Assembly: GCA_965662175.1 (NCBI GenBank)
Contig: CBFIGT010000025.1
Coordinates: forward strand, 1 to 24,260
Length of the DNA stretch: 24,260 bases
Direction of reading: 5' to 3'
From: Arcobacter sp.
GTDB lineage: Bacteria > Campylobacterota > Campylobacteria > Campylobacterales > Arcobacteraceae
This document shows, in pieces, positions 2,146 through 24,260 of the stretch. The notes below the pieces were generated by a model, which ran no database searches, was not told where the DNA came from, and saw nothing but the letters and a program-made list of their open reading frames with translations. A program made the position numbers and the translations under genes. Each line of letters starts with the position of its first letter. Positions within the stretch are counted from its first letter, which is position 1.

Positions 2146-3063
2146 TTAAAAGATTGAAAATCCTGTTTTTGTAGTAAATAGCTCTAAAGCTTTTGTTCCC
2201 ACTAAAGAGTTTCCTTGAGAGTTTAGTTTTGGACTATAAACACAAATTGCCATTTTTTTAGGAACAATTGCAACTATTCCTCCACCAACACCACTTTTCC
2301 CAGGAAGTCCTACTTTAAAGGCAAAATCACCACTTGCATCATAATGACCACAAGTTAACATTAGTGAGTTAATTCTTTTTGCTTGGGGAGCTGTTATTAT
2401 TACCTCTTTTGTAAGCGGATTAATACCATGATTTGCTAAAAAAAGCATAGAGCGTGCTAGTTGTCTTGTATTCATCATAATTGAGCATTGTTTAAAATAT
2501 GTTTTAATTACTAAATCAATATCATTTTTTATATTATCAAAGCTTTTCATCATATTTATAAGTGCAAAATTTCTAAAACCATGGGATAATTCAGAGTTAA
2601 ATATCTCTTCATCAAAGTTTAATGATGGGCAGTTTGATGCTTTTTTGATAAACTCAAGTATAGTTTCGAAGCTATTACTTCCATAAAGTGAAACTAATGA
2701 ATCAGTTGTAACTATAGCACCTGCATTGATAAAGGGATTTCTAGGAATTCCTTTTTCGTACTCAAGTTGAACCAAAGAGTTAAAGGGATTTCCTGAGGGT
2801 TCATGACCAACTCTTTTGTATAACTCTTTTCCATATTTTTCTAAAGCAATAGTAAAAGTAAAAACTTTTGAAATACTTTGAATAGAAAAAGCTTTTTCGG
2901 AACATCCAATATGATACTCATCACCATCTACTGTAATTAAACTCATGGCAAAGCCATTTTCATCAACATCTTTTAGCATTGGAATATAATCAGGAAGTTT
3001 ACCCTCTTTTAAAAATGCTTGAATTTCGCTTTTAATCTCTTTTAATATTACATTATAGTCCAT
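2146..3063 (-). CDS. glsA: Glutaminase
   Basis: FSIQSISKVF (catalytic S-x-x-K), EPSGNPFNS, PRNPFINAGAI, GLPGKSGVGGGI; 305 aa is typical. Confidence 0.96.
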   Translation of the reverse strand: MDYNVILKEIKSEIQAFLKEGKLPDYIPMLKDVDENGFAMSLITVDGDEYHIGCSEKAFSIQSISKVFTFTIALEKYGKELYKRVGHEPSGNPFNSLVQLEYEKGIPRNPFINAGAIVTTDSLVSLYGSNSFETILEFIKKASNCPSLNFDEEIFNSELSHGFRNFALINMMKSFDNIKNDIDLVIKTYFKQCSIMMNTRQLARSMLFLANHGINPLTKEVIITAPQAKRINSLMLTCGHYDASGDFAFKVGLPGKSGVGGGIVAIVPKKMAICVYSPKLNSQGNSLVGTKALELFTTKTGFSIF

Positions 3064-5085: not shown

Positions 5086-5112
5086 TTAGCACTATATATT
5101 GACAAGTGCTAA
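5086..5112. promoter_or_regulatory. CIRCE HrcA operator 2, overlapping the -35 box
   Basis: TTAGCACTA-N9-AAGTGCTAA, 8/9 match in each arm with exact spacing. Confidence 0.88.
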
Positions 5113-5184: not shown

Positions 5185-5598
5185 ATGTTAGTAACAAGAT
5201 TTGATCCTTTTAAACAAATAAGGGATTTAGAAAAAAATTTATATACGTATCCTTCAAATGAAGGTGTAAGTGGTTTTGTACCAATTGTTAATACAAGAGA
5301 GGGTGAGTTTGCTTATCACATAGATGCTGATTTACCTGGAGTTAGCAAAGAGGATATAAAAGTTGATATTCATAAAGGTGTTTTAACAATATCAGGTGAA
5401 AGAAAAACAAAAAATGAGATAAAAGAGGAAGATTATTATAAGCTTGAAACTTCATTTGGAAAATTTTCTAGAAGTTTTACTTTACCAGATAATGCTGATA
5501 TTGAAAATATAGAAGCTGCAAGTGATAATGGTGTTTTAGAAGTTGTAATTCCAAAACTTAGTGAAGAGAAACATAAGAAAATTATAAATATTAAATAA
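5185..5598 (+). CDS. Small heat-shock protein, Hsp20/alpha-crystallin family
   Basis: ADLPGVSKEDIKV, LTISGERK, FGKFSRSFTLP, NGVLEVVIPK; RBS AAGGAG; 137 aa. Confidence 0.96.
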   Translation: MLVTRFDPFKQIRDLEKNLYTYPSNEGVSGFVPIVNTREGEFAYHIDADLPGVSKEDIKVDIHKGVLTISGERKTKNEIKEEDYYKLETSFGKFSRSFTLPDNADIENIEAASDNGVLEVVIPKLSEEKHKKIINIK

Positions 5599-5665: not shown

Positions 5666-5700
5666 AAAGGGGAAGATTTTTTATCTTTCCCTTTTTTTTT
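5666..5700 (+). terminator. Rho-independent terminator of hsp20
   Basis: AAAGGGGAAGAT-TTTTT-ATCTTTCCCTTT with one G:U pair, ending in a 9-T run. Confidence 0.85.
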
Positions 5701-5767
5701 GCTTAAGACTTTATACCTTTTTTATATGAATAGTAATAAAATTTACCATACATTTAGGAGGTGCTAA

Positions 5768-7132
5768 TTGTTAGACAATAAAAATGTAATTACGGATATA
5801 TTTTGGGATGTATTTTCAACTCAAGATAGACAAAAAATAGATGAATTTAAAAAGTATATGGATAAATTCGCTGTTAATTTCAATCTTTATAAAGATGGAA
5901 ATTTTATAGAAAGGTCACTTCCTTTTGATGTAATTCCTAGAATTATAGAGACAAAGGAGTTTGATAAAATTGATAGGGGATTAAGCCAAAGAATAAAGGC
6001 TTTAAATCTATTTTTAGAAGATTTATACACAGATAAAAAAATCTTAAAAGATAAGGTTATTCCTGAAGAGTTTATATATCAAGCAAAAGGCTTTTTAAAA
6101 GAGTTGGAAGGTTTTTCACCCTCTAAAAAACTTAGAACACATATTAATGGAATAGATTTAGTAAAAGATACAGTATCAAATGAATGGGTTATTTTAGAAG
6201 ATAATTTAAGAGTTCCTAGTGGAGCTAGTTATCCTTTATCTATAAGAGATACATACAGAAAACTATATCCTGAATTTTTTGAAAAACTAAAAATTAAGCC
6301 TATTAAAGATTATGCCTCACTTTTAGAAAACTCAATGAATCATGTGAATTGTGGTGGAATAAATGTTGTTTTAACTCCAGGTAGATTTAATTCAGCTTAT
6401 TATGAACACACTTATTTAGCAAAACAAATAGGTGCTCAATTAGTAAGAAGTAATGAGTTAAAAGTAGAAAATAAAGTTTTATATTTTAAAAACTATGATG
6501 GTCGAAAAATAAGAGTTGGTTCTGTTTATAGAAGATTAGATGATGAATTTTTAGACCCAAAATATTTTAATGAAGATAGTTTAATTGGAGTTCCAGGAAT
6601 TATGGAAGCCTATTTAGCTGGAAATGTTGCAATTATGAATGCACCTGGAAATGGTGTTGCTGATGATAAGGGTATTTACTATTTTGTTCCTAAGATGATT
6701 AAGTATTATTTAGGAGAAGAAGCAATATTAAGCAATGCGCCAACTTATTTACCATATTTTGAAGAAGATAAAAAATATATCTTTGATAATATTGAAAAAT
6801 TAGTAATTAAAGATGTGGCAGAAGCTGGTGGTTATGGTGTTATGTTTGGACATGCTATGAGTAAAATTCAATTAGAAGATTTAAAAACTATTATATCTGC
6901 ACATCCAAGAAGATTTATAGCTCAAGAGTTAATAGAGTTTTATGATGAAGAGTGTTATTTAAATAATGAAATTGTTCCTAGAAAAGCAGATTTTAGAGCT
7001 TATGTAGTTATGGATGAAGAACCAAGAGTTTGGAAATGTGGACTTACAAGATATGCAATGGAAGCTGGTAATTATTTAGTTAATTCATCACAAGGTGGTG
7101 GATTTAAAGATACATGGGTTATGGAGGCTTAA
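5768..7132 (+). CDS. Circularly permuted type 2 ATP-grasp protein (DUF404/DUF407-like), catalytic motif intact
   Basis: ERSLPFDVIPRII, GLSQRIKALNLFLEDLY, GIDLV, VILEDNLRVPSGASY, VVLTPGRFNSAYYEH, YRRLDDEFLDP, NAPGNGVADDK, VNSSQGGGFKDTWV; TTG start with AGGAGG at 5756-5761. Confidence 0.93.
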   Translation: MLDNKNVITDIFWDVFSTQDRQKIDEFKKYMDKFAVNFNLYKDGNFIERSLPFDVIPRIIETKEFDKIDRGLSQRIKALNLFLEDLYTDKKILKDKVIPEEFIYQAKGFLKELEGFSPSKKLRTHINGIDLVKDTVSNEWVILEDNLRVPSGASYPLSIRDTYRKLYPEFFEKLKIKPIKDYASLLENSMNHVNCGGINVVLTPGRFNSAYYEHTYLAKQIGAQLVRSNELKVENKVLYFKNYDGRKIRVGSVYRRLDDEFLDPKYFNEDSLIGVPGIMEAYLAGNVAIMNAPGNGVADDKGIYYFVPKMIKYYLGEEAILSNAPTYLPYFEEDKKYIFDNIEKLVIKDVAEAGGYGVMFGHAMSKIQLEDLKTIISAHPRRFIAQELIEFYDEECYLNNEIVPRKADFRAYVVMDEEPRVWKCGLTRYAMEAGNYLVNSSQGGGFKDTWVMEA

Positions 7133-7133
7133 T

Positions 7134-7799
7134 ATGGTTCAGTTATTAACAGCAAATGTTGCATCAAATCTTTATTGGTTTGGAAGATATTTAGAGAGAA
7201 TTGAAGCTACATTGGTGGAAGTGGTTAGTACTTTTGATAAAATAATTGATTTAGATAAAGATGCTGGAAAAAAACTTTATAAAAAGTTTGATATCAATAT
7301 TGATTATAATAACTCAAGAGAGTTTTTAGATGTTGCTATATTTGGAGAGCATGAAGCAAATATGAATCAGCTAATGGAGTTTGCACGTGAAAATGCAATT
7401 ATTAGTAGAGCCTCAATGGATACAGAAGCTTTTGGTTCAGTAATTGAGCTATCTGATGTATTTAGAAATGCTAATAATAGTGGTTTTTGGATTGATTTTA
7501 ATTTTATTGATCATGTATTATCATTAATAAGTGAGATTTGGGGTGAATTAACAAGAAATCAAAAAAGAAATACAAGTGATTATTTTATAAGACTTGGTAA
7601 ATTAGTTGAAAAAGCAGATTTACATTTAAGACTTGAAAAAGATAAAGAGTTTTCTTTGGTTGTTATGGATGAAATAGATACTATTGTTTCTATATTATCT
7701 CCTGATTCTGAATTTACATCTTATGATGAAAATGAGAGTTATGAGACTATCTTAAACTCAATGAATAGTAAAATAAATAAAATTATTGTAGTAGACTAA
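7134..7799 (+). CDS. Alpha-E domain protein (DUF403-like), short form
   Basis: VASNLYWFGRYLERIE, ARENA and FIRLGKLVEKAD are alpha-E motifs. Start moved from 7095 to ATG 7134, 1 bp after the ATP-grasp stop, with GGAGG at 7123-7127; 221 aa. Confidence 0.9.
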   Translation: MVQLLTANVASNLYWFGRYLERIEATLVEVVSTFDKIIDLDKDAGKKLYKKFDINIDYNNSREFLDVAIFGEHEANMNQLMEFARENAIISRASMDTEAFGSVIELSDVFRNANNSGFWIDFNFIDHVLSLISEIWGELTRNQKRNTSDYFIRLGKLVEKADLHLRLEKDKEFSLVVMDEIDTIVSILSPDSEFTSYDENESYETILNSMNSKINKIIVVD

Positions 7800-7801
7800 T
7801 A

Positions 7802-8746
7802 ATGAAAACAATTGAAGTTTTTAACTCACAACTTCCAGTTGGTGAAAAATTAACTATTAAAAGAACTAGATTTGAAGCTAAAAAACTAAATAAAAATAGT
7901 AAAAGAATTTCAATAGTAAGTGGTATTCATGGTGATGAACTTGAGGGTCAACTTGTAATCTTTTTATTAGCAAATTGGTTAAATGAGAATATGGATAAAT
8001 TAAATGGAATAGTAGATATTTATCCATCAATAAACTCTTTAGGTGTGGATACAATAACTAGAACTTTTCCATCTTATGATGTGGATTTAAATAGAGCTTT
8101 TCCAGGTGGTGAAGATGATTTTTTACCAGGTCAAGTTGTTCATGCTTTAGCACAAGATGTAAAGGGTAGTGATATTGCTATTGATATTCATTCAAGTAAT
8201 ATTTTTTTAAGAGAGATTCCTCAAATTAGAATAAATAAAGAGTTCTCAAAATCAACTTTACCTTTGGCAAAAAAGTTAAATTGTGATTTTATTTGGATTC
8301 ATGATGCTGTTACAGTTTTAGAAGCTACTTTTTCACATACAATGAACTCAATGGGAACAAAAACGCTTGTTGTTGAAATGGGTGTTGGAATGAGACTTAC
8401 AAAAGCATATGGAACACAACTTTTAAATGGTATTTTAAATCTTATGAAAGAAGAAGGAATTATTAAGTGCGATGAGGAGTTTGAAAATAGAGAAGCTTTC
8501 TCTTCTGAAATAGGGGATGTATTTTATTTAAACTCTCCTAGAAGTGGACTATTTGTTCCTAGCTTAGACCACTGTGCTATTATTAAAAAAGGTGATAAAA
8601 TTGGTGATATAGTTGACCCTTTAAAAGGTGCTGTTTTAGCTACCTTAGAAGCTCCTAATGATGGTATTTTATTTACACTACGAGAATATCCAGTAGTTTA
8701 TGAGGGTTCATTACTTGCAAGAATTTTTGGAGAAAAAAGTGAATAA
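7802..8746 (+). CDS. M14 family zinc hydrolase (succinylglutamate desuccinylase/aspartoacylase-like), active-site motifs intact
   Basis: SGIHGDE (HxxE), DLNRAFPG, IDIHS, VVEMG catalytic Glu, and C-terminal barrel-sandwich segment (GDKIGDIVDP...APNDG). Confidence 0.92.
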   Translation: MKTIEVFNSQLPVGEKLTIKRTRFEAKKLNKNSKRISIVSGIHGDELEGQLVIFLLANWLNENMDKLNGIVDIYPSINSLGVDTITRTFPSYDVDLNRAFPGGEDDFLPGQVVHALAQDVKGSDIAIDIHSSNIFLREIPQIRINKEFSKSTLPLAKKLNCDFIWIHDAVTVLEATFSHTMNSMGTKTLVVEMGVGMRLTKAYGTQLLNGILNLMKEEGIIKCDEEFENREAFSSEIGDVFYLNSPRSGLFVPSLDHCAIIKKGDKIGDIVDPLKGAVLATLEAPNDGILFTLREYPVVYEGSLLARIFGEKSE

Positions 8747-9677
8747 AATTGAGATTTTAAGATTAGAGTCTTTAAGTAGAGAACCTTTAGTTATTGAGGG
8801 GTTTTTATTTAAAGGATGTGACCCTAAAGCTCCAAAAATAGCTGTTGTTGGTGCTATGGAGGGTGAGGGTGTTTTACCCTTATATTGTGCTTCAAATTTA
8901 GTGAATTTCTTTAAAAACAAGATTGATGAAAATAAAATAAAAGGGGATGTTTTTATTATTCCCTCAATAAATCATTATGCTTTAAATAGTGGAAAAAGAT
9001 TTTGGCCCTTAGATAATACAAATATAAATACTATGTTTCCAGGCTTTGATGAGGGTGAAACAACTCAAAGAATAGCAAAAAAGATATTTGATGTTTTAGA
9101 GGGTTATGATTATGGTGTTATTTTAGAGAAAAGATTAGACCCTGTAAACTGTTTACCATATATTAAACTTTTTAAAAGTGGATATGAAGATTTACAGAGT
9201 GCTAGAAATTTTGGCTTAAAAGTTATTCATCATAGGGAAATGGCTTCAATTGATACAGTAACACTACAATATAACTGGCAACTTTGGGGAACAAAAGCTT
9301 TTTCATTGATGTGCCCAAATGAGAATTTAGTAGATAATAATAAGGCAAAACAGATTATTCAATCTATTTTGAGATTTATGTATAAATCAGAAATTATTGA
9401 TTATCCTATTTTTAATGGTTATGAATCAAATATTTTTGATAGAAGTTTACTTGAGGTTATAAAAACACCAAAAAGTGGTATTTTTATACCAAAATTCAGA
9501 CCAGGTAATTATGTATCAAAGTTTGATAAAATTGGTAAAATTGTAGATTCTTTAACAGGTGAGATTATTTATGATTTTATATCACCTTGTGATGGTATGA
9601 TAACTTGTAACTATAATCGTTCTTTGATTTATGGAAATGCAGTTGCCTTTAGAATTGCAAAAATAAAAGAGGAGTAA
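8739..9677 (+). CDS. Second M14/AstE-AspA family paralog with degenerate zinc and catalytic motifs
   Basis: Collinear with the upstream paralog (PSIN, MFPG, SG.F.P, IGKIVDSLTG, SPCDG). HxxE region reads AMEGEG, NR reads NT, DIH reads ILE, and VVEMG reads SLMCP. Likely start GTG 8739 with GGAG at 8729-8732, 8-bp overlap with the upstream gene. Confidence 0.85.
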   Translation: MNKIEILRLESLSREPLVIEGFLFKGCDPKAPKIAVVGAMEGEGVLPLYCASNLVNFFKNKIDENKIKGDVFIIPSINHYALNSGKRFWPLDNTNINTMFPGFDEGETTQRIAKKIFDVLEGYDYGVILEKRLDPVNCLPYIKLFKSGYEDLQSARNFGLKVIHHREMASIDTVTLQYNWQLWGTKAFSLMCPNENLVDNNKAKQIIQSILRFMYKSEIIDYPIFNGYESNIFDRSLLEVIKTPKSGIFIPKFRPGNYVSKFDKIGKIVDSLTGEIIYDFISPCDGMITCNYNRSLIYGNAVAFRIAKIKEE

Positions 9678-9691
9678 TCTCCTCTTTTATT
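9662..9691. terminator. Bidirectional terminator joining the two convergent operons
   Basis: AATAAAAGAGGAG-TAAT-CTCCTCTTTTATT, perfect 13-bp stem; the + gene stop is in the loop and the - gene stop is in the stem. Confidence 0.8.
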
Positions 9692-10673
9692 GAGATTGGG
9701 TTTGTGACTGTGTTTGAGATTGGGTTTGTGACTGTGTTTGAGATTGGGTTTGCGTTTGAGACTGTGTTTGCATTTGACTAGCTTCTTCTACTCTTTCTAC
9801 ATTTACTTTTACAGATAATATACTATTTCCACTACTTTGTACCACACCTTTAAGTGGAGCAATATCTAAATAATCTCTTCCATAACCTAAAAGTATATAC
9901 TCTTCATTTGGAATTTTATTATTTGTAGGGTCAAAATCCATCCATCCAAAACCTGGAATATAGACTGAAAACCAAGCATGGGAAGCATCAGCACCAAAAA
10001 GTTTAACTTCACCCTCTAAAGGTAGCGTTTGAATATAACCACTTTGGTATCTAGCTGGTATTCCAATTGTTCTAAGTCCTGCTATTGCAAACTGTGCAAA
10101 ATCTTGACAAACCCCTTTTTTCTCTTTGAAAATAGTCTCTATTGGAGTTGTTACATCACTAAATCCTGATACAAACTTAAAATCAGTGAATATTCTATTC
10201 ATAAGCTCATAACAAGCCTCAAAAAGAGGTCTATTTTCATCAAATGATTGTAGTATATAAGTTTTTATTTCATCAGAAACATTAGGAATTGAGTCTGTTG
10301 CAAATAAAAACTGTTTTGCCATTACATCATCTTTATTAAAGCTACTTAATCTATCTAAACTCTCTTTTACAGTTATTTTAGAGTTTTTTACCTCTTCATT
10401 TAATCTTTTTATCTCTTCTACATTTAATAAAACTTTTGATTTAGCTGTTACATTTAGTTCTGTATGGGCTTCTCTAATTAGCATAAAAGAGTTTAAGTTC
10501 CCAAAATAATCAGTAAACTCACTTGTTTCATAGGGTGTTGGTGAGATAAGAAGTGAGTGCTCTAGAAGAGTTTGAATATTATTTGTTTTTGGTTTTAATC
10601 TTGCAATATTATGACTAAAGCTTACTAGTGCATTATATTTAAATATTGTTTCGTGGTAAAGTTCATAAATCAT
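9687..10673 (-). CDS. Transglutaminase-like protein (bacterial transglutaminase N-terminal domain plus core) with Gln-rich tail
   Basis: Catalytic triad GVCQDFAQ / ASHAW / DFDPTN, DYFGN in the N-domain, GRDYLDIAPLKGV. Confidence 0.94.
   Translation of the reverse strand: MIYELYHETIFKYNALVSFSHNIARLKPKTNNIQTLLEHSLLISPTPYETSEFTDYFGNLNSFMLIREAHTELNVTAKSKVLLNVEEIKRLNEEVKNSKITVKESLDRLSSFNKDDVMAKQFLFATDSIPNVSDEIKTYILQSFDENRPLFEACYELMNRIFTDFKFVSGFSDVTTPIETIFKEKKGVCQDFAQFAIAGLRTIGIPARYQSGYIQTLPLEGEVKLFGADASHAWFSVYIPGFGWMDFDPTNNKIPNEEYILLGYGRDYLDIAPLKGVVQSSGNSILSVKVNVERVEEASQMQTQSQTQTQSQTQSQTQSQTQSQTQSQ
9690..9776 (-). repeat. Coding tandem repeat giving a 29-residue (Q-T/S)n C-terminal tail
   Basis: 24-bp unit TTGAGATTGGGTTTGTGACTGTGT is exact over 9690-9752 (about 2.6 copies) on a 6/12-bp sub-period; encodes QMQTQSQTQTQSQTQSQTQSQTQSQTQSQ (15 Gln). 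Confidence 0.95.
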
Positions 10674-10677
10674 AATA

Positions 10678-13170
10678 TTACTCGCTAATGTGTGAAAAAT
10701 ATGTTTTTGTTAATTCATCTGAGGCTTGTGTTATTAAATCAGATGATTGACTTAGAAAACTATCTAACTCTTTATATATAAACTCATCCTCTTTTATCTC
10801 TAATAACTTATCACTTGATGAAAGACTTAAGAGTGAAAAGGCTTTAAAAATAGGCTCTTCAAAATTACTTAGGTGAAGATTTTCACTTTTTGGTAACTCT
10901 TTTAAATTTGTCTCTAACTCTTTAATTAAATAGATTAAAGATTTTGGATATTGGGTATTAAATATTAAAAAATCCAATACATTTTTTAGGTTTAAAGAGG
11001 ATTTATAATATGCTCTATAGGAGTTATAACTCTCATATGAATTTAACATAGAGTCTAAAATTTCATACTCTAATATATTGTCAAGTTTGTATGTTAATAG
11101 TGACCTTAATTTTGATATTAAAAGTTGTGAAATCTCCATTTTGCAACCAATATCATATAGTAATAAACCCTGCTCTTTGAAAATACTCTCATCAATTAAC
11201 TCTTTGTAAGCCATTAAATAGATTAAAAGATTATCAAGTTGATTAATATGCTCAGGAAAAAGTAAGAACTCTTTTTTTGTATATGATAGCCACTCTTTTT
11301 GCATCTTTTCATATATTCTCCAAGCATCAATTGTTAGAAGATTTTTTATATTTGCATTAATATTTGATAAAAGAGATAGGGTAAAACTTAAAGTCCCAAC
11401 CCTTGAACTGTTTTGAATCAAATCTAAAATCTCATCTGTAGGATTTATTTTTTCTTTATCCTCTTCTAAAAATCCTGGATAAGTCATAGTTAAATGGGTT
11501 AAGGCATTATTCAAAAGTTCAGTTATAGTTTTAGAGTTTCTATCATCTTCATATCTATTAATATTTAAAATACTTTTTAAATTAAATCTTATTATTCTAG
11601 CTGTACTAATTGACCTTGTTAAATATCTTCCTAACCAAAAAAGATTTTCCGCTCTTTTTGTAGAGATATTTTCAAGTCTTGAGTCTATAAACTCTTTATT
11701 TTTAAATATATTAACAGGTACAATTTCAGTACTTTTCCCTAAAATCCATAAATCTTTACTTGTACCTCCTTTTTGGTTTGATACAACTAAAGAGTCTTTT
11801 GATGAGGATACTCTTACTAATCCACTTGGCATTACATCATAATTATCTTTATTTAAAAATGAAAAGGCTCTAATAACTGCATTTCTTGGTTCAATTTTAT
11901 TATCATTAAAAGAGGGTACAGTTGAAAAGTCTATAATCTCTTGACCTACATAATGGTATGGATTTTTTTCTATTTTTTTTATTAGTATTTCAAGCTCTTC
12001 ATTTGAGAGTTTATTTCCAAAATATGTCTCTAAGTTTTTTGTTTTATCTATTTTCTTAATTATTAGATTTTTAATATTTTTTATAACAAAATCTAACTCC
12101 TCTTTTTGACCACACCACCAAGTTGCAATTTGAGGAAGAATTAACTCTTCATCTAAAAAATATTTACAAATATTTTTCATAAATGGATTTAATCCTATAT
12201 TTTCTAAAATACCAATACCAATAGGATTTATCATTGCTAAATTATCTTCTCTTAAAACATTTACAAGTCCAGCAACACCTAAATATGAGTCACTTCTAAG
12301 CTCTAAAGGGTCACAAAACTCTGAATCAACCCTTCTTATCATTGCATCAACTTTTTTAAGTCCACTTAATCCTTTTAGCCATAATTGATTATTTTTAGTA
12401 AGTAAATCTTCCCCTTGAACTAAGGTTAAATCTAAAAATGAACTCAAATATGAGTGCTCAAAATATGTCTCATTATGAGGTCCTGGACTTAGAAGGGTTA
12501 TTAGTGGATGTTCATTATTTTTTGAAACAAGCTCTCTTAACATAGTTTTAAAATCTTCTATAAATCTAATAATTTTTTTTATCTCTACATCAGGATATAA
12601 CTCATTTGAGATTGAGTTCATAGTTAATCTATTTTCAATAGCATAACCTAATCCCGATGGAGATTGAGTTTTATCATTTATAAGCCAAAACTTTCCATCA
12701 GGACCCCTACTTATATCAGCTGCATAAAACTTCATAGTATAGTAATCTTTATTTTCAAAATTACAAAGTTCAGGTAAAAAATTTTTATGGCTAAAAATTA
12801 TTTCAGCTGGAATAATTCCCTCTTTTATAAGGTTTTGTTCATTATATAAATCTTTAAAAATTAGATTTAGAAGTTTTGCTCTTTGTGCTAAGCCTTTTGA
12901 TACTTCATTCCACTCATTTTCAGTCAAAACAAAAGGAATAGGGTCTAATTTCCAAACTCTATTAGTACCCTCAGGGTCATTATAGATATTGAAAGTAACT
13001 CCATTATCCTCTAATCTCCAATCTATCTCTTGTTGTTTTTGTTCTAATTTATCAATTCCCACTTTTTCTAAATCATCAACTATTTTTTGCCAATGCTCTT
13101 TTACATTGCAATCTTTGTCAAACATTTCATCAAAAGTAGGAGCTAATTTACAAGCATCAAAAATCGGCAT
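10678..13170 (-). CDS. Circularly permuted ATP-grasp plus alpha-E fusion protein
   Basis: WKLDPIPFVL, GLAQRAKLLN, YAADISRGPDG, DKTQSPSGLGYAIENR, LLSPGPHNETYFEH, RRVDSEFCDPLELR, GGTSKDLWI, then alpha-E RAENLFWLGRY and YPKSL; the ATG directly follows the upstream TAG. Confidence 0.92.
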   Translation of the reverse strand: MPIFDACKLAPTFDEMFDKDCNVKEHWQKIVDDLEKVGIDKLEQKQQEIDWRLEDNGVTFNIYNDPEGTNRVWKLDPIPFVLTENEWNEVSKGLAQRAKLLNLIFKDLYNEQNLIKEGIIPAEIIFSHKNFLPELCNFENKDYYTMKFYAADISRGPDGKFWLINDKTQSPSGLGYAIENRLTMNSISNELYPDVEIKKIIRFIEDFKTMLRELVSKNNEHPLITLLSPGPHNETYFEHSYLSSFLDLTLVQGEDLLTKNNQLWLKGLSGLKKVDAMIRRVDSEFCDPLELRSDSYLGVAGLVNVLREDNLAMINPIGIGILENIGLNPFMKNICKYFLDEELILPQIATWWCGQKEELDFVIKNIKNLIIKKIDKTKNLETYFGNKLSNEELEILIKKIEKNPYHYVGQEIIDFSTVPSFNDNKIEPRNAVIRAFSFLNKDNYDVMPSGLVRVSSSKDSLVVSNQKGGTSKDLWILGKSTEIVPVNIFKNKEFIDSRLENISTKRAENLFWLGRYLTRSISTARIIRFNLKSILNINRYEDDRNSKTITELLNNALTHLTMTYPGFLEEDKEKINPTDEILDLIQNSSRVGTLSFTLSLLSNINANIKNLLTIDAWRIYEKMQKEWLSYTKKEFLLFPEHINQLDNLLIYLMAYKELIDESIFKEQGLLLYDIGCKMEISQLLISKLRSLLTYKLDNILEYEILDSMLNSYESYNSYRAYYKSSLNLKNVLDFLIFNTQYPKSLIYLIKELETNLKELPKSENLHLSNFEEPIFKAFSLLSLSSSDKLLEIKEDEFIYKELDSFLSQSSDLITQASDELTKTYFSHISE

Positions 13171-16100
13171 CTATTTTTTTATCCACTTTTGTCTTAAATC
13201 TAAAGTATGAGGAAACTCTTTATTTTTTGGCATCTCTTTGAAATAAAGTTTTTTACTCTCTTTTGTTGTTTTTAAAGTTCTATTTGCTTCAATAGCAAAA
13301 ATAGTATTACTCTCTCCACCAAGCTCTGGTTCATAATATTCAACATTACCTTGTGAGTGATTAAAATCCCAATATCTATTTATTCGTCTAGACTCAGCTT
13401 CATATGAGTTTACTGGGAAAGTATCATAACTTCTTCCTCCTGGATGTGTAACAAAATAGTTAAATCCACCAATTGATCTTGTATTCCATTTATCAATAAT
13501 ATCAAAAGTTAAAGGCGTATCAACTCCAATTGTTGGGTGAAGTGCTGACCATGGTTGCCATGCTTTATATCTAACACCACTTACATAAACTCCCTCAACA
13601 TCAGTTGCACTTAAAGGAACTTGTATTCCATTACATGAAACAATATATCTCTCAGGATTAAAGTTTTCTATTTTTATTTGTAATCTTTCAAGTGATGAAT
13701 CAACATATCTAGCTGTTCCTTGTGAACTTGACTCTTCACCTAATACGTGCCAAGGCTCAATAGCTGATCTAATTTCAACAGGCATTCCCTCAACCATAGT
13801 CATACCATGTAGTGGAAATCTAAACTCAAAGAATGGGTCAAACCAATCAAGTTTAAACTCATATCCCTCATCATTTAGATATTGAACAACACTTCTAATA
13901 TCCTCTTTTACATAATGTTCAAGCAAGAATTTATCATGTAATCTTGTTCCCCATCTAACTAAATCATGTTTATACGGTCTTTTCCAAAAACAAGAAACTA
14001 AAGCTCTTACTAATAGCATTTGTAAAAGTGCCATTTGTGAGTGAGGTGGCATATCAAAGGCTCTTAGCTCTAAAATACCAAGTCTTCCTGTACTTGAATC
14101 AGGTGAATATAGTTTATCTATACAAAACTCACTTCTATGAGTGTTTCCTGTAATATCTGTTAACATATGTCTAAATAATCTATCTGTTAACCAAAAAGGA
14201 ACATCTCCCTCTTCAGGTATTTGAGAAAATGCAATTTCAAGTTCATATAGATTTTCAGCTCTTCCCTCATCAACTCTTGGAGCTTGTGAAGTTGGACCTA
14301 TAAAAGCACCACTAAATAAATATGAAAGTCCTGGATGATGTTGCCAAAAAGTGATTAAACTTCTAAGCAAATTTGGATTTCTTAAAAGTGGCGAATCACT
14401 AGGTTTTAAAGCCCCAATAGTTACGTGGTTTCCACCACCAGTACCTGTATGTCGTCCATCAATCATAAACTTCTCAGTTCCAAGTCTACACTGTCTTGCA
14501 TCTTCATAAAGATTAAGTAAGTTATCACTTAACTCTTTCCAAGAAGTAGCAGCTTGAATATTAACCTCAATAACACCTGGGTCTGGAGTAACTTTGATTC
14601 TATCTGTTCTTAAATCATGTGGAGGTTCATAACCCTCGATAATAATCGCCATATCTAATCTTTTTGCTGTCTCTTCAATAGAAGCAATTAAATCTAAAAA
14701 TGGCTCACTTTTTTCTAATGGTGGAAGAAAAACACAAAGTTTTTCATCTCTTATTTCAACACTAAGAGCTGTTCTTACGAACTCATTATATCTATTTTTA
14801 ATAGTAGTTTTTTTGCTCATTTTCTTTGCTCTTTTTTGCACTGTTGGAATATACTCTCCAAGTGCTGGATAAGAGGCAAACAGGTCATTTTCAAACTCTT
14901 GTTCTAATTCAATATGTGGTTTAGCAATTAATGATTCTAAAGGAAGTCTAAGTCCAAGAGGTGAGTTTCCAGCTCCCAAAAACATATGACCTCTTCTAAA
15001 CTCCCATTTTGAAGTTATCCATTTAGTTTTACCATAATTTATAGGAAGAACATATCCTACCTCTTCATTTAAACCTTTTGAAAGTTTTTCAGCAATAGTT
15101 CTTCTTTCAAGTGGATCTTTTAAATTAAACTCTAAAGGATCTATGTCTATAGGAAGTTCAGCCTCTTTCATAATATAATAAATAGGATCTTCAAAAGCTG
15201 GTACTATATTTTCATCACTAACTCCTAATACCAAAGATAGAGTTGAGATAAATTTTTTAGCATCTTCTGTTGTATATGGATATGATTTATTCATATCAGC
15301 TAAAAGTTCTGGATTTTCCCATACAGGTTTATTATCTTTTCTCCAAAAAACTGTTGTTTGCCATCTTGGAAGTGGTTCACCTGGATACCATTTCCCTTGG
15401 GCATGGTGAAGTAATCCACCACTTGTACTAGTTTTAAGTAATCTTCTTGATAAATTATTTGCTAATTCTCTTTTTAGTGGACCATCAGCTTTTGTATTCC
15501 ATTGTTCTGATTCCATATCATCAATAGATACAAAAGTAGGCTCACCACCCATAGTAAGTCTTACATCATTTTTTTCTAAATCTTCATCAACTTTAAATCC
15601 AAGCTTATAAATTGCATCCCATTGCTCTTGTCTATAAGGTTTTGTAACTCTTGGTGATTCAAATATTCTTGTAACTTTATTTTCAAATTCAAACTCTGTT
15701 TCACATGTATCACTAAATCCCTCAATTGCATGGGCACTATTATAGTGTGGCGTACAAGCTAAAGGAATATGTCCCTCTCCTGCAAATAATCCACTTGTAC
15801 TATCAAGTCCAACCCAACCAGCACCTGGAATATAAACCTCAGTCCAAGCATGTAAATCGGTAAAATCCTCTTCAGGGCCACTTGGTCCATCAAGAGATTT
15901 AACATCAGCCGTAAGTTGTACTAAATATCCTGATACAAATCTAGATGCAAGTCCAAGATGTCTTAAAACTTGAACAAAAAGCCAAGCTGAATCTCTACAT
16001 GAACCTAATTTTTTCTCTAAGGTTGTTTTACAAGTTTGAACACCCGCTTCCAATCTTACAGTATAGTTTACATATTGGTTGATTTTTTGATTAACTTCAA

Positions 16101-16536
16101 CTAAAAAGTCAATAATAGGCTTCTCTTTTTTATCAATACTTTTTACAAACTCTTTTAGTAATTTACCATCTTCTTCTATTTTTAAATAGGGTTTTAACTC
16201 TTGTTTTAAATCTTTTTTGTATTTAAAAGGGTAGTTTGTAGCACTATCTTCAACAAAGAAATCAAAAGGATTTAATGTAATTAAATCTGCAATAATCTCA
16301 ACATCAATTGAAAACTCAGTGGTTTTTTCAGGGAAAACCAATCTTGCCATATAGTTCCCAAAAGGGTCTTGTTGCCAATTTATAAAGTGGTTTTTTGGTG
16401 TAATATTTAAAGAATAAGCCTCAATTGGTGTTCTACTATGAGGAGCTGGTCTTAGCCTAATAATATGTGGTGAAAGAGATATTGCTCTATCATATTTATA
16501 TTTCGTTTTATGGGAGATAACTATTTTTAAAGACAT
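13171..16536 (-). CDS. Transglutaminase domain plus DUF2126 putative amidoligase (carboxylate-amine ligase-like) fusion
   Basis: IRLRPAPHSRT, WQQDPFGN, triad GSCRDSAW / DLHAWTE / GLDST; then LTMGGEPTFVS, GKWYPGEPLPRW, TPDPGVIEVN, GTGGGNH, HRSEFCIDK, ELRAFDMPPH; 1121 aa. Confidence 0.93.
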   Translation of the reverse strand: MSLKIVISHKTKYKYDRAISLSPHIIRLRPAPHSRTPIEAYSLNITPKNHFINWQQDPFGNYMARLVFPEKTTEFSIDVEIIADLITLNPFDFFVEDSATNYPFKYKKDLKQELKPYLKIEEDGKLLKEFVKSIDKKEKPIIDFLVEVNQKINQYVNYTVRLEAGVQTCKTTLEKKLGSCRDSAWLFVQVLRHLGLASRFVSGYLVQLTADVKSLDGPSGPEEDFTDLHAWTEVYIPGAGWVGLDSTSGLFAGEGHIPLACTPHYNSAHAIEGFSDTCETEFEFENKVTRIFESPRVTKPYRQEQWDAIYKLGFKVDEDLEKNDVRLTMGGEPTFVSIDDMESEQWNTKADGPLKRELANNLSRRLLKTSTSGGLLHHAQGKWYPGEPLPRWQTTVFWRKDNKPVWENPELLADMNKSYPYTTEDAKKFISTLSLVLGVSDENIVPAFEDPIYYIMKEAELPIDIDPLEFNLKDPLERRTIAEKLSKGLNEEVGYVLPINYGKTKWITSKWEFRRGHMFLGAGNSPLGLRLPLESLIAKPHIELEQEFENDLFASYPALGEYIPTVQKRAKKMSKKTTIKNRYNEFVRTALSVEIRDEKLCVFLPPLEKSEPFLDLIASIEETAKRLDMAIIIEGYEPPHDLRTDRIKVTPDPGVIEVNIQAATSWKELSDNLLNLYEDARQCRLGTEKFMIDGRHTGTGGGNHVTIGALKPSDSPLLRNPNLLRSLITFWQHHPGLSYLFSGAFIGPTSQAPRVDEGRAENLYELEIAFSQIPEEGDVPFWLTDRLFRHMLTDITGNTHRSEFCIDKLYSPDSSTGRLGILELRAFDMPPHSQMALLQMLLVRALVSCFWKRPYKHDLVRWGTRLHDKFLLEHYVKEDIRSVVQYLNDEGYEFKLDWFDPFFEFRFPLHGMTMVEGMPVEIRSAIEPWHVLGEESSSQGTARYVDSSLERLQIKIENFNPERYIVSCNGIQVPLSATDVEGVYVSGVRYKAWQPWSALHPTIGVDTPLTFDIIDKWNTRSIGGFNYFVTHPGGRSYDTFPVNSYEAESRRINRYWDFNHSQGNVEYYEPELGGESNTIFAIEANRTLKTTKESKKLYFKEMPKNKEFPHTLDLRQKWIKK

Positions 16537-16562
16537 ATAAAATCCTTTTATTTTAAAGGATT

Positions 16563-16568
16563 ATTATA
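16563..16568 (-). promoter_or_regulatory. Probable sigma70 -10 box for the DUF2126 operon
   Basis: TATAAT on the minus strand 26 bp upstream of the ATG; RBS AAAGGA follows. Confidence 0.5.
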
Positions 16569-16597
16569 CTCTTTTTAAATCATTTAGTAGATTAAAT

Positions 16598-16629
16598 AAA
16601 AAAGAGAAAATTACAAAATTTTCTCTTTT
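16598..16629 (-). terminator. Rho-independent terminator after the chemoreceptor gene
   Basis: Minus strand AAAAGAGAAAATT-TTGT-AATTTTCTCTTTT-TT; 13-bp stem starting 4 bp after the stop. Confidence 0.7.
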
Positions 16630-16633
16630 GGAC

Positions 16634-18858
16634 TTAATTGAATTGTTTACTATTTGTATTTTCTATTATTTCAAAAGCAATACTGCTTGTTTTAACAGCA
16701 ATAGCTTTTGCATCATTTGCAACTTTAGCGTTCTCTTGAGTTAGTTGGTCAATTTTAGAAATAGCTTCATTTATTTGAGAAATAGTTTTACTTTGCTCTT
16801 TTGTTGAATCAGCTACACTTCCAATTATTGTACTTGTATTTAGGATTTTTTCATTTAGTTTACTATATCCCTCAATCATCTGTTCAGAACTATTTTTCCC
16901 CTCACTAGCTTTTATATTTGCTTTTTCCACCAAAGCTTTAATCTCACGTGCAGCTTCTGCACTTCTTGAAGCTAGGTTTCTAACCTCTTGGGCAACTACA
17001 GCAAAACCTTTTCCAGCTTCTCCAGCTGTTGCTGCTTCAACAGCTGCATTTAGACTTAGAATATTTGTTTGGAAAGCAATTTGGTCAATAATAGTAATTG
17101 CTTCATTTATCTCTTGTGTCGCACTATTAATTTCATCCATAGATTTTTGTGTTTTTGTAGCTAAGGATAAGCCCTCATTTGCATAAGATAAAGTCTCTTT
17201 AGATAGAGTTTGCATCTGTGCAGCTTGTGATGAGATTTCATTTATTGAAGATGTAGTCTCTTCAATAGAAGCTGCTGTTTCTTCAATAGAAGCTGCTTGT
17301 GAAAGGGCTGAATTATTTAATTGTTCAACATTAGATGATAGAATAGTTGCATTATTACTTAAAATATCACCTGTTTGTTTATTTTCTCTTAGCATTAGGC
17401 TTATAGCCTCTCCTAAAGAGTTTATTCCATCAATTAGTTTTTTCATCTCACCATTCATATTTTGTTCAGATAATTTTGATAAATAGTTGTAGTTTGAATA
17501 GTTCTCTAGCTCTTTTAAAATATTAGTCATTACTTTTTGTTGATTCTCTAACATTTTGTTAATTGTTGAGGCAAAAGTTCTAATTTGAGGATTTGCAGGA
17601 ATTGACATTACTCTATTTTCCAAATAACCTTGTTGAAGTTTATTTAAAACTAAAATAGCCTCCCCAGCACACTTCATATCTTTTTCAAGTTCTGAATCTA
17701 AAGTCTCTAGGTTTTTATTTATAAAATTTGCAATTTCACCCAATTCTCCCTTTGATTTAACATCAATATATTGAAAAGTATTTCTTTTTCTATTCATAAA
17801 ATCAAAGAATGTTTCAACTCCACTTCTAATTTTTAAGATAGCATCTATAATTGTAAATGTAATATATCTTCCCAATAAAGAGGTAAATAAAAGTACTAAA
17901 ATACTAAATGAAATATAAATAATTAAAGTAGATAGTGAAGACTCTTTTTTCTCTTTTGTTTTTTCTAAAATATCATTTGCTATATAATCATCTAATTGTT
18001 TTAATAGGTTTATTTTTTGAGTAATAGTTTTAAACCAATAAGTAGAATCAATTCCAAAATTACCATCTCCATTATTTGTAATAATCAATTCTCTCATTTT
18101 ATTAACTTCAGCAACTGATTTATCTTCAAGTAATTCATTTTTCTTTTTTACTAATAGTTCTGTTGCTATATTTTCAAACTCATGCATATAAGCTTCTTGC
18201 ATAGCAATTAAAGAGATAAATTTTGCATGTAATTCAGGAACTAATTTATTAGATGCAAAAATAGCTGAACCAACAGCTCTTTCAATTCCAGCTCTCTCTT
18301 TTGATTCTAAAAAAGAGTAATAAGCCATACTGTGTGATGTAATATCCGCATCATTTGATTGCTTAAATACTAAAGTTGTAAAACTAAGAAATTTAGTGTT
18401 TATATTTGTATAGTATGAAATAGCAGTTTTTAGTGGAATTCTAAATTAATAACATCTTCTCTTACTTTGTCTAATTTAGATAGCTCTTTGAAAATATTAT
18501 TTAATTCATTTAATGAAGTTTTATTAAGTATTGATTTTACATTTGAACTTTTAATATAATCTTCCAAAAAGTTTAATTTTTCATTTGTTAAATATTTTTG
18601 CTTAGATAAAATATCAGAAAATTTTTCACCTTTACTTTCTATATAACCAGCACTTGCACCTCTTTCTTTTTGTGATTCATGAACTACATATGAAATATTG
18701 GCATTAAGTGTCATTAGAATTTCAAGTTTTTTATAACTTTGCAGTTCTTCATATTTGTTAGAGATTAGAATAAAGGCCATAAGAATTAGAGCAATAACAG
18801 GAATAATAGAGACTAAAAAAAGTTTTTGTTTGATTGGTAAGTTTTTAATATAATTCAT
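16634..18858 (-). pseudogene. Methyl-accepting chemotaxis protein with periplasmic NIT (nitrate/nitrite-sensing) domain, split by a 1-bp frameshift
   Basis: ORF 18430-18858 has TM1 and VHESQKERGASAGY. ORF 16634-18328 has [24 protein letters not shown]2 and [37 protein letters not shown]. The downstream frame is open from 18445 ([19 protein letters not shown]...). One added base in 18433-18445 restores a 741-aa ORF. Could be a sequencing error. Confidence 0.88.
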
Positions 18859-18866
18859 AGTAACTC

Positions 18867-19253
18867 CTAGTCCATACTTTTATAAAGCTCAATTGCTTTT
18901 TCAATTTCATCTCTAGAGGCTACTTTTCTACAAGACATAAAACCTTTTGAACCATCACTTGATTCAAGTGGATAAACAGTTGCATAAACCCAATAGTAGT
19001 TATTATCTTTTGTTCTATTTTTTACAAAACCTTTCCAGATTTTACCTGCTTTTACAGTTTGCCATAAATCTTTAAATGCAGCTTTTGGCATATCAGGGTG
19101 TCTTAAAAGATTGTGAGGTTGCCCAATTAGTTCACTTAAATTGTAGTTACTTATTTCACAAAACTCATCGTTTGCGTATTTTATTATGCCTTTTTCATCG
19201 GTTTCTGAAACAATAAATGAATTGTTATTCAGAAGAATCTCTTGCCCAGCCAT
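18867..19253 (-). CDS. Stand-alone PAS domain protein, Aer/CetB-like
   Basis: IVSETDEKGIIKYANDEF, GQPHNLLRHPDMPKAAFKDLWQT, WKGFVKNRTKD, YYWV; stop 8 bp before the MCP start. Confidence 0.93.
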   Translation of the reverse strand: MAGQEILLNNNSFIVSETDEKGIIKYANDEFCEISNYNLSELIGQPHNLLRHPDMPKAAFKDLWQTVKAGKIWKGFVKNRTKDNNYYWVYATVYPLESSDGSKGFMSCRKVASRDEIEKAIELYKSMD

Positions 19254-22268: not shown

Positions 22269-22279
22269 AGCTTTTCCTA

Positions 22280-23740: not shown

Positions 23741-23763
23741 AAAATTTTACTCCGTTAAATTTT

Positions 23764-23915
23764 TAGTATTATGTATTAAGTGTTAGGTGCTAAGTTTTAG
23801 GAGCAAAGTATTTGTAAATTTCAACACTTATTCTACAAGACTTTTTCCAAACATCAAGTTTTTCACATTTCAAATTACTTTCCTCCTAACACTTAGCACT
23901 TAACACCTAACACTA
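23764..23915. repeat. Long imperfect inverted repeat built from tandem heptamers in the cysD-cysN spacer
   Basis: Left heptamers TAGTATT ATGTATT AAGTGTT AGGTGCT AAGTTTT then AGGAGCAAAGTA; right TACTTTCCTCCT then AACACTT AGCACTT AACACCT AACACTA. Arms 23773-23810 and 23876-23913 match at 33/38 positions around a 65-bp loop. Confidence 0.88.
23790..23873 (-). pseudogene. 27-codon remnant of a four-helix-bundle (23S rRNA intervening-sequence protein, TIGR02436-like) gene
   Basis: AGGAGG at 23882-23887, 8 nt, TTG start, then MKCEKLDVWKKSCRISVEIYKYFAPKT*. E-K-L-D-V-W-K-K-S...I-Y-K is the N-terminal signature of this family as I recall it. The later DQ..R...S..SNIAEG part is absent. Confidence 0.72.
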
Positions 23916-23929
23916 TTTTTAATCTCCGA

Positions 23930-24260
23930 TTAAAAATACCCCTCTTGTTTCTTCTTCTCCATTGATGCATCACCATCACTATCTATAAGTCTACCTTGTC
24001 TTTCACTAGTCGTACAAATCAACATCTCTTGAATAATCTCAGGCAAGGTTGAAGCTTCACTGTTAACTGCACCTGTTAGGGGATAACAACCAAGTGTTCT
24101 AAATCTTACTTTCTCTTTTTTTGCAGTTTTTCTAAGCTCTTCAGGCATTCTTTCATCATCTACCATGATTTTTGTACCCATATACTCAACTACTTCTCTC
24201 TCTTTTGAAAAATATAAATCAGGAATAGGTATAGCTTCTAAATAGATATATTGCCAAATA
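23930..24260 (-). CDS. cysD: Sulfate adenylyltransferase subunit 2, 3' part (starts beyond the right edge)
   Basis: The frame is open to the edge: [24 protein letters not shown]...[15 protein letters not shown]...[22 protein letters not shown]. The ORF-track start at 24181 is internal. Confidence 0.97.

Follow-up and report, generated by a model that had tools for sequence, protein, structure and literature searches.

A convergent seven-gene cluster of predicted amide-bond enzymes in Arcobacter sp. and the M14 pair that marks an Anbu-related subtype

The window analysed here (the whole 24,260-nucleotide stretch of an Arcobacter sp. contig) carries seven genes that are predicted makers and cutters of amide bonds, organized in two convergent operons (Table 1). 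Its M14 pair marks a cross-phylum subtype of the ATP-grasp/alpha-E/transglutaminase system, composed of a ligase, a short alpha-E, a transglutaminase (TG), and M14a and M14b in the Anbu slot. The known Anbu operon consists of a CP ATP-grasp (COG2308), an alpha-E protein (COG2307), a TG (COG1305) and Anbu (PMC3235984, PMC5666114, PMC6376114). The cluster resembles it in the three core families, in the order of genes with which operon 1 begins and in a likely link to nitrogen limitation, but it lacks Anbu, bears an active/dead M14 pair in the terminal slot, has a shorter alpha-E (by about 90 aa) and a CP1 from a separate clade, and has no TG of its own in operon 1. The window resembles Arcobacteraceae DNA. 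The layout is common among free-living Campylobacterota, and this copy is ordinary within the family.

Table 1. Features of the cluster and its flanks (window positions).
Feature	Positions	Strand	Details
Operon 1 promoter region	5695..5767	+	TGTAT-N7-ATACA box lost with a 59-nt segment between 5703 and 5704 (compared with G017)
CP1, ATP-grasp ligase (circularly permuted), predicted active	5768..7132	+	PF14403 (E 3e-132); E144-D-N146
Short alpha-E, 221 aa	7134..7799	+	PF04168
M14a, AstE/AspA-type zinc amidohydrolase, predicted active	7802..8746	+	PF24827; H43, E46, H130, E192, N97-R98
M14b, pseudo-peptidase paralogue	8739..9677	+	no zinc histidines, no catalytic Glu; 23% identity to M14a
Candidate bidirectional terminator, 13-bp hairpin	9662..9691	both	spans both stop codons
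TG, transglutaminase-like thiol enzyme	9687..10673	-	PF08379+PF01841; triad C189/H232/D248
CP2-alphaE fusion	10678..13170	-	CP_ATPgrasp_2+Alpha-E; ATP-grasp predicted inactive
TG-DUF2126	13171..16536	-	PF09899; thiol triad C180/H229/D245, ligase-like domain, Ig-like domain
Operon 2 promoter region	16537..16633	-	TATAAT 16563-16568; hairpin behind upstream gene; no TGTAT-N7-ATACA box

All seven ORFs run without interruption in the order given by the preliminary description, and Pfam upheld its assignment of the locus to the system of Iyer and Aravind, with CP ATP-grasp, alpha-E and TG members in one neighbourhood. The plus-strand matches were CP_ATPgrasp_2 (E 3e-132), Alpha-E (8e-16) and two AstE_AspA_cat (2e-17 and 1e-7). 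On the minus strand, the TG gene matched Bact_transglu_N and Transglut_core, the fusion gene CP_ATPgrasp_2 and Alpha-E, and the large gene Bact_transglu_N, Transglut_core and DUF2126. Intergenic gaps are 1, 2 and -8 nt in operon 1 and 0 and 4 nt in operon 2, and the facing stop codons of the two operons are 9 nt apart. The hairpin previously proposed as their shared terminator folds on either strand (z -4.4 and -6.0, with 0 of 200 shuffles equal or better) and stands as a candidate, while a simple terminator scan did not pick it up; many tight operon junctions of relatives bear hairpins of different sequence, scored there without a shuffle control. Probable starts are ATG 7134 for the short alpha-E (GGAGG at 7123-7127) and GTG 8739 for M14b (GGAG at 8729-8732). 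A promoter scan performed at chance level (75 found, 70 expected). In the RNA-labelled runs X5 and X6 (assembled contigs of one study), the pieces were mostly 85-92% alike and come from relatives.

CP1 matches PDB entry 3n6x (E 9e-111). In glutathione-synthetase-like enzymes, ExN is the metal-binding motif. CP1 keeps it at E144/N146, as do 68 of 68 homologues, whereas the fused copy reads N165-D-K167 and none of its 13 aligned homologues has ExN. Two working ATP-grasp writers had been assumed; by these residues CP1 is predicted to be the only intact ATP-grasp ligase of the cluster. It falls in a clade separate from the Anbu-operon ATP-grasps in a tree made with FastTree only, which gave a long-branch warning at the split of the two main clades and has one row (L064) labelled 'none' although M14a is present at the contig edge. 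The short alpha-E has both ER-type motifs, the second reading EK, and aligned with long forms it lacks the C-terminal FPRS region (about 90 aa); in the fusion, the first ER Glu is gone from the alpha-E part, which keeps an FPRS-like region. The 221 aa of the short form fall below the full length of the strict Anbu operon (about 310-330 aa), and its atlas matches are alpha-E clusters of 224-230 aa. Of 92 M14 loci, 91 have an alpha-E of 270 aa or less, and in 12 of 12 Anbu loci the protein exceeds this length. For a homologue, the only ATP-dependent activity reported in the available part of PMC6376114 is phosphate release from ATP.

The two M14 proteins, formerly taken for two active erasers, proved to be one intact enzyme and one pseudo-enzyme. 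The HxxE...H zinc triad, the Asn-Arg pair and the catalytic Glu of M14a are kept in 74 of 74 homologues, while 0 of 77 M14b homologues have His at either zinc site or Glu at the catalytic site; three distant homologues retain both His. PDB sequence matches of M14a were DoeB/aspartoacylase-like, with a weak CphZ match confined to residues 243-311 and no CCP. The AlphaFold model of M14b (pLDDT 92) has the DoeB/EutE fold (E 4.5e-21, TM 0.73) and matches CphZ at 9e-17. CCPs, the polyglutamate-trimming M14 enzymes, share the superfamily fold, but the structural match is much weaker (bacterial CCP 4b6z, E 1e-7, TM 0.48). A CCP-type deglutamylase identity is therefore not supported, and neither is the analogy to eukaryotic CCPs: M14a, the active one, is closer to amidohydrolases of small molecules (DoeB, CphZ) than to tubulin CCPs. 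In the available part of PMC9974463, CphZ is an M14 protein that cleaves beta-Asp-Arg dipeptides, and its zinc triad is described. M14a shares with DoeB/EutE and CphZ the two-domain fold, the zinc triad and the catalytic Glu. However, the M14s of the cluster score far below the family cut-offs (TIGR02994, 51 versus 403 bits), the pseudo-enzyme partner lies in tandem, and no cyanophycin or ectoine genes were found within the window.

Complex prediction for M14a and M14b scored 0.56 (best of three controls, 0.01). Scores no higher than 0.60 came from only 18 of 157 solved complexes and from both of the mismatches that passed (2 of 215); the runs share at least 97% of contacts, with partner pLDDT of at least 89. 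Since homo-oligomers of the M14 family are already solved, the pass may stem from likeness, and the prediction weakly supports a complex.

In operon 2, TG ends in a Gln/Thr/Ser tail of about 30 aa with QTQS repeats, the Gln tail noted before. The DUF2126 part of the large protein is predicted to be a glutamine-synthetase-like COOH-NH2 ligase. Residues E332, E634, E657, H704, R801 and E823-x-R825 are invariant in 11 of 11 alignment rows, and glutamine-synthetase-family chains made up 8 of the top 13 rows for its model (Z 5.4-6.0, rmsd 4.3-6.0, 216-248 residues aligned), a poor model (pLDDT 51) for which Z below 8 can reflect a common arrangement. Foldseek gave TM below 0.1, and profile searches of PDB and the atlas yielded nothing usable for this fold. 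Rv2569c is presumably a TG of this system. Serine-protease-like activity has been reported for it (available part of PMC11081392) but was given no weight here, and in the accessible text of a Mycobacterium preprint (10.64898/2026.04.15.718621) Rv2411c and Rv2567 appear only as negative candidates for GABA-trehalose synthesis. As far as the available part of PMC2588565 goes, TG-DUF2126 is taken as a small-peptide rather than a protein-conjugating ligase, and the Rv2566-type TG-fused ligase family occurs with a CP ATP-grasp/alpha-E fusion. Operon 2 has that same composition of TG-DUF2126, fusion and TG; unlike that family, it faces an M14-type operon 1, and it lacks the 'putative zinc-binding metallopeptidase' gene seen in plasmid loci.

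The expectation that M14 genes are conserved beside the ATP-grasp/alpha-E genes was borne out: of 67 loci whose upstream DNA extends far enough, 66 show this arrangement. With a homology query, Anbu was detected in 0 of 151 family genomes and in 1 of 49 M14 genomes, a count that still includes one hit treated as likely mis-binned because its 1.6-kb contig has 69% GC against 47% at the M14 locus. As a check, the same query recovered Anbu from its control record; among 261 Bacteroidota genomes it was positive in 12. The absence of an Anbu-like gene from the cluster extends to the whole genome by this query and a PF00227 search, whose sole match is HslV-like and has an HslU-like gene behind it (both named by reading of the translation). 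The M14 pair and Anbu are thus close to mutually exclusive, nearly as had been anticipated. The seven genes do not, however, form the self-contained set first supposed, or any fixed unit: five family genomes have a contiguous locus without the M14 pair, and DUF2126 had matches in 0 of 35 M14-type genomes (G165-G199). Many of the long-alpha-E loci show no M14 and no Anbu in their vicinity. A suspected cross-phylum sulfur link was rejected, as only 1 of 80 loci has a true cysN; other GTPases had most likely been pooled in the cluster behind the suspicion. Among the matches listed for the open full-text literature (subscription journals lie outside it), no paper describes an M14 pair next to CP ATP-grasp/alpha-E, and none describes the TGTAT-N7-ATACA box of Arcobacteraceae. 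The Anbu operon is reportedly among the systems treated by Iyer et al. 2009, and the M14 variant may already be there or in the supplements.

This box, with at most one mismatch, lies upstream of CP1 in 13 of 26 Arcobacteraceae loci and of TG-DUF2126 in 7 of 21, against 26 of 1898 background ORFs; the counts are inflated since the consensus was derived from these same upstream regions, and the loci include kin and are not independent. This genome has 20 perfect sites, ten of which precede narK, nirB, a gene for a formate/nitrite transporter, two amt genes, urtA, nifE and nifA. Several relatives have the box on both operons, and one (G138) also before glnA and amt. Judged by sequence, the box in the relatives is likely a nitrogen-control element, which supports nitrogen limitation as the condition to test, as previously suggested. 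Upstream of both operons of this genome it is gone (best match, four mismatches at each), the 59-nt loss before operon 1 being seen by pairwise alignment with L050, same-genus genome G017, so nitrogen may have no effect on this copy. In P. putida, nitrogen limitation induces the Anbu operon (PMC7801951 and PMC6376114, available parts), and domains of the system were linked to urea metabolism in marine metagenomes (PMC3597751, likewise in part).

Taken together, the parts comprise an intact ATP-grasp, a predicted glutamine-synthetase-like ligase, two thiol enzymes, an intact zinc amidohydrolase and two partners without catalytic residues. Our tentative preference, slightly short of an even chance, is a nitrogen-limitation cycle that would build and then cut a small gamma-glutamyl peptide, a product that we infer. 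DUF2126 would join the gamma-carboxyl of glutamate to an amine, and CP1, for which the short alpha-E would be a partner subunit, would attach another residue in the manner of glutathione-type synthetases. The TG domains would hydrolyse or transfer gamma-glutamyl or glutaminyl amides, and M14a, likely with dead M14b, would free the C-terminal residue of an N-acylated or iso-linked dipeptide, the task ascribed elsewhere to the Anbu slot gene. CP2-alphaE may serve as scaffold or regulator. Since operon 2 is missing in most M14-type genomes, the DUF2126 step would not be required there, and the relatives without the M14 pair, with the long-alpha-E loci lacking M14 and Anbu, would make the last step optional.

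In protein tagging, as proposed by Iyer and Aravind, alpha-E or the Gln-rich C-terminal tails would instead receive Glu/Gln or other residues from CP1 and DUF2126, and TG and M14a would take them off again. That model is stated in the available part of PMC3495828, and Gln-rich tails (four or more Gln among the final 20 residues) are present on alpha-E or TG in 20 of the 24 three-gene loci that lack M14/Anbu and in 12 of 27 seven-gene-type loci (counts that include three duplicate loci). These conserved tails point to a protein acceptor and count against a small peptide; in addition, a second M14 of this genome, 27% identical to M14a, lies directly behind rimK, a glutamate ligase gene. We nevertheless consider tagging rather unlikely: just 4 of 47 M14-type operons without operon 2 have such tails, M14a is closer to small-molecule amidohydrolases than to CCPs, and co-expressed Anbu-operon proteins gave neither an altered Anbu form nor a stable complex (PMC5666114 and PMC6376114, available parts), results that concern Anbu and not alpha-E modification.

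The CphZ likeness of both M14s, among whose nearest solved relatives CphZ ranks, and the presence of two ligase and two hydrolase chemistries in one cluster under a likely nitrogen box would also suit a storage polyamide of the cyanophycin type. In that scheme, a nitrogen-rich polymer would be built by the ligases and broken by TG into dipeptides, which M14a would then hydrolyse, roles modelled on cyanophycinase and CphZ. This seems improbable, given that the likeness to CphZ is weaker than that to DoeB, that starvation induction suits mobilising more than storing, and that the cited literature on the system reports no polymer. Finally, the two operons could be unrelated neighbours, with no single pathway and the M14 pair serving a separate catabolic task. 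A search of 59 genomes indeed found 43 without operon 2, many Arcobacteraceae have the two operons split or parted by inserts, and one M14 pair (L145) occurs in a genome without any CP ATP-grasp match. Against it, the operon-1 TG is absent where operon 2 is present (the window and 8 of 8 genomes, G151-G158) and kept where operon 2 is missing, with G160 and G161 carrying both, and the same box precedes both operons in several relatives; we regard mere adjacency as very improbable.

Beyond the gamma-glutamyl cycle preferred here, a broader proposal, rather doubtful at present, is that the cluster represents an undescribed subtype of the Anbu system in which an obligate active/dead M14 hetero-oligomer, inherited together with a truncated alpha-E, replaced Anbu. 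Going by the M14 chemistry, Anbu itself would then be no protease; it would hydrolyse an iso-linked glutamyl peptide, or a Gln-tail tag, made by the ligases under nitrogen limitation, within a TGTAT-N7-ATACA nitrogen regulon in Arcobacteraceae. Purified Anbu cleaved none of the proteasome substrates tried (available part of PMC6376114). What the ATP-grasp/alpha-E/TG(/Anbu) system does has been a puzzle since 2008-2009, and the findings narrow its pathway without solving it. A replacement from the M14 family, whose chemistry is well known, gives a short list of substrates for screening. Knowledge of the dead copies indicates which proteins to express together, CP1 with alpha-E and M14a with M14b, and dead partners would account for possible failure of single-protein assays. 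Natural variants for comparison are at hand in loci that lack M14, in others that lack operon 2 and in this genome, which has lost the box.

All seven ORFs of the preliminary description are present and uninterrupted, and Pfam assigns them to the same families. A 13-bp hairpin covers the operon ends, 9 nt apart, on both strands and folds better than 200 of 200 shuffles; the homologues carry the names Aliarcobacter, Halarcobacter and Arcobacteraceae, which makes the host Arcobacteraceae-like. Anbu, the proteasome-like NTN-hydrolase gene of related operons, is indeed missing from the cluster, the sole proteasome-fold match in the genome being HslV-like.

Features of the window, with strand where assigned
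Feature	Position	Strand	Remark
Glutaminase gene	2146-3063	-	2.7 kb from CP1
CIRCE-like inverted repeat	5086-5112		over perfect sigma70 promoter, upstream of hsp20
hsp20	5185-5598		operon 1 starts just after its terminator
Missing 59-nt segment	after 5703		relative to G017; carries the box there
Operon 1	5768-9677	+	likely starts: alpha-E 7134, M14b 8739
Operon 2	9687-16536	-
NIT-domain (nitrate/nitrite-sensing) chemoreceptor	16634-18858, 18867-19253	-	behind small PAS protein; split between 142-aa and 564-aa ORFs, different frames
cysN-like and sulfite-reductase-like genes	19391-24260		near cluster

In the same-genus relative G017 a 743-aa ORF stands at the position of the chemoreceptor. ORFs resembling the glutaminase are also found close to the locus of G091 and of G019. 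At five Arcobacteraceae loci (L033, L035, L036, L059, L061) either a Cys/Met PLP enzyme or an Rrf2 regulator together with sulfate-/sulfonate-type ABC genes is inserted in the cluster or next to it; across phyla no such sulfur association was seen (cysN at 1 of the best 80 of 599 loci).

Residue states were read from ORFs of 80 loci fetched with an M14b alignment (the best 80 of 599 confirmed), a set biased towards kin of the query. All 74 full-length copies of M14a kept H43, E46, H130, E192 and N97-R98. The preliminary description envisaged two working erasers, but M14b had neither a His at either zinc site (0/77) nor the catalytic Glu (0/77). It nevertheless retains 37 near-invariant positions, including W87, FPG...GETTQRIA and YNW; M14b is a conserved pseudo-enzyme. 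Its predicted model (pLDDT 92) matched DoeB/EutE best, then CphZ, and bacterial CCP far more poorly, so the proposed analogy with CCP deglutamylases is not supported; a sequence search with M14a gave the same group. A predicted M14a-M14b complex passed weakly (score 0.56 versus 0.01 for the best control; 97% or more of the contacts shared between runs, pLDDT of the partners 89 or higher). Just 18 of the 157 solved complexes scored 0.60 or below, as did the two mismatches that passed out of 215. Because homo-oligomers of the family are already solved, this pass may reflect likeness.

The association of the M14 pair with ATP-grasp and alpha-E genes recurs elsewhere. Among the 67 of these best 80 loci with enough upstream DNA, CP1 lay upstream on the same strand in 66, most often as CP1-alphaE-TG-M14a-M14b (41) or without TG (20). 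The 80 loci come from Campylobacterota, Bacillota, Bacteroidota, Verrucomicrobiota, Pseudomonadota, a Desulfovibrionaceae bin and one archaeon. The exception, L145 of the Desulfovibrionaceae bin, has an intact pair and zero CP ATP-grasp matches in its genome; either the two genes are able to move by themselves or part of the bin is missing. In two samples picked independently of M14, CP occurred in 10 of 201 Campylobacterota genomes, nine of them with the pair, and in 5 of 300 genomes (one unscored) from the class of Ruminococcus flavefaciens, where the four other than the centre all had the five-gene order. Genes for type III glutamine synthetase or for amino-acid ABC transporters are frequent neighbours of clostridial M14-type operons (L110, L111, L122, L128, L133, L134, L236).

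Within Arcobacteraceae, CP ATP-grasp was found in 31 of 151 genomes, M14b in 25 and both in 24. The order CP1-alphaE-M14a-M14b was kept in all 19 relatives whose long-flanked stretch contains operon 1, and operon 2 faces operon 1 directly or over an insert in most of them. Seven CP genomes lacked M14b; two are fragments, and in the other five (G017 and G091, of the window's genus, G018, G006 and G110) the locus is contiguous and consists of five genes with no M14 among them, a 26-28% paralogue lying elsewhere or being absent altogether. With the pair gone and an internal stop in CP1 (locus L052), operon 1 of G091 may be decaying.

The M14 pair occupies the position held by Anbu in the published four-gene operon (PMC6376114). 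The suggested mutual exclusion was nearly complete: Anbu was not found in the best 80 of 599 loci or in 151 family genomes, and occurred in 1 of 49 M14-type genomes, on a contig likely mis-binned, these counts coming from non-independent kin and from a single query that detected Bacteroidota Anbu at just 24-33% identity. Of 261 Bacteroidota genomes, 82 had alpha-E and 12 had Anbu, and the centre genome was the only one with the M14b clade; many loci had neither the pair nor Anbu nearby. Alpha-E did not exceed 270 aa in 91 of 92 M14 loci and did exceed it in all 12 Anbu loci; the C-terminal FPRS region is missing from the short version. A FastTree of 132 CP1 proteins, built without an outgroup and carrying a long-branch warning, placed every M14-type and short-alpha-E row on one side of a branch supported at 100. 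The five-gene Arcobacteraceae fall within that group, a pattern that reads as a single origin with several losses.

In relatives, a palindrome, TGTAT-N7-ATACA (the box), lies upstream of CP1 by roughly 77-100 nt and of TG-DUF2126 by 80-85 nt. At one mismatch or fewer it preceded CP1 in 13 of 26 and TG-DUF2126 in 7 of 21 Arcobacteraceae loci, versus 26 of 1898 ORFs in the window's genome, the first two counts being inflated because the consensus was derived from these very regions. Its other genomic locations are the independent check. In each of the seven genomes counted, perfect sites were more numerous than matches to the reversed control (14/2, 20/5, 25/10, 11/2, 16/6, 16/5, 12/3). In the window's genome (G000) 10 of 20 sites lie upstream of narK, nirB, a formate/nitrite transporter, two amt genes, urtA, nifE and nifA, and in the relative G138 there are sites ahead of glnA, of amt and of both operons. 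The box, which resembles an AT-rich NtrC box, likely marks an Arcobacteraceae nitrogen regulon, seen here in G138 and on contigs C32, C54, C55, C56, C140, C157 and C94 of G000. In both genomes a 250-aa sigma54-interaction-domain protein, a candidate for a regulator that controls its own gene, also has the box upstream. The window has lost the box before operon 1; before operon 2 none was found in the window or in G017.

The seven genes had been taken as one set. DUF2126 occurred in 16 of 59 genomes searched, every one Campylobacterota, and in none of G165-G199, so the portable unit is operon 1 with its own TG, which counts against a single set. In its favour, no TG stands in operon 1 of G151-G158 or of the window, all of which have operon 2, and genomes without operon 2 retain the operon-1 TG (the Campylobacterales G160 and G161 have both), which suggests that the operon-2 TG serves operon 1. 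It is quite improbable that the operons are unrelated neighbours.

Among the best 80 of 599 loci, ExN was intact in 68 of 68 CP1 and in 0 of 13 fused ATP-grasps. Cys-His-Asp is intact in both TG domains, and a Glu/His/Arg set was conserved in all 11 rows of DUF2126. In a poor DUF2126 model (pLDDT 51), glutamine-synthetase-family chains made up 8 of the top 13 rows (Z 5.4-6.0), in agreement with PMC2588565. Protein tagging, to which Gln tails shifting between alpha-E and TG across phyla and a rimK-M14 pair elsewhere in the genome would point, seems rather unlikely, such tails being rare in M14-only operons (4/47). That second ligase-plus-M14 pairing (L227, G000:C68:500-4500) consists of rimK, directly followed by an AstE/AspA-type M14 that shares 27% identity with M14a, and then by a third gene, which has no NCBIfam match and by translation resembles an M20/M42 peptidase. 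A storage polymer is a still less probable product.

The gene families and the core ATP-grasp/alpha-E/TG system are already published, as is a nitrogen link in P. putida (PMC7801951 and PMC3235984); a literature search that did not include Iyer et al. 2009 found no paper on the Arcobacteraceae box or the M14 subtype. This analysis adds the exclusion of Anbu at the level of whole genomes, the clade with short alpha-E, the natural losses of M14, the complementary presence of TG in the two operons, and the Arcobacteraceae box with its loss in the window. Since the eraser belongs to a small-molecule amidohydrolase family and both ligases resemble glutathione-/glutamine-type synthetases, we tentatively favour a small gamma-glutamyl peptide cycle, its every chemical step inferred, in which the peptide would be made and then cut, recycling nitrogen.
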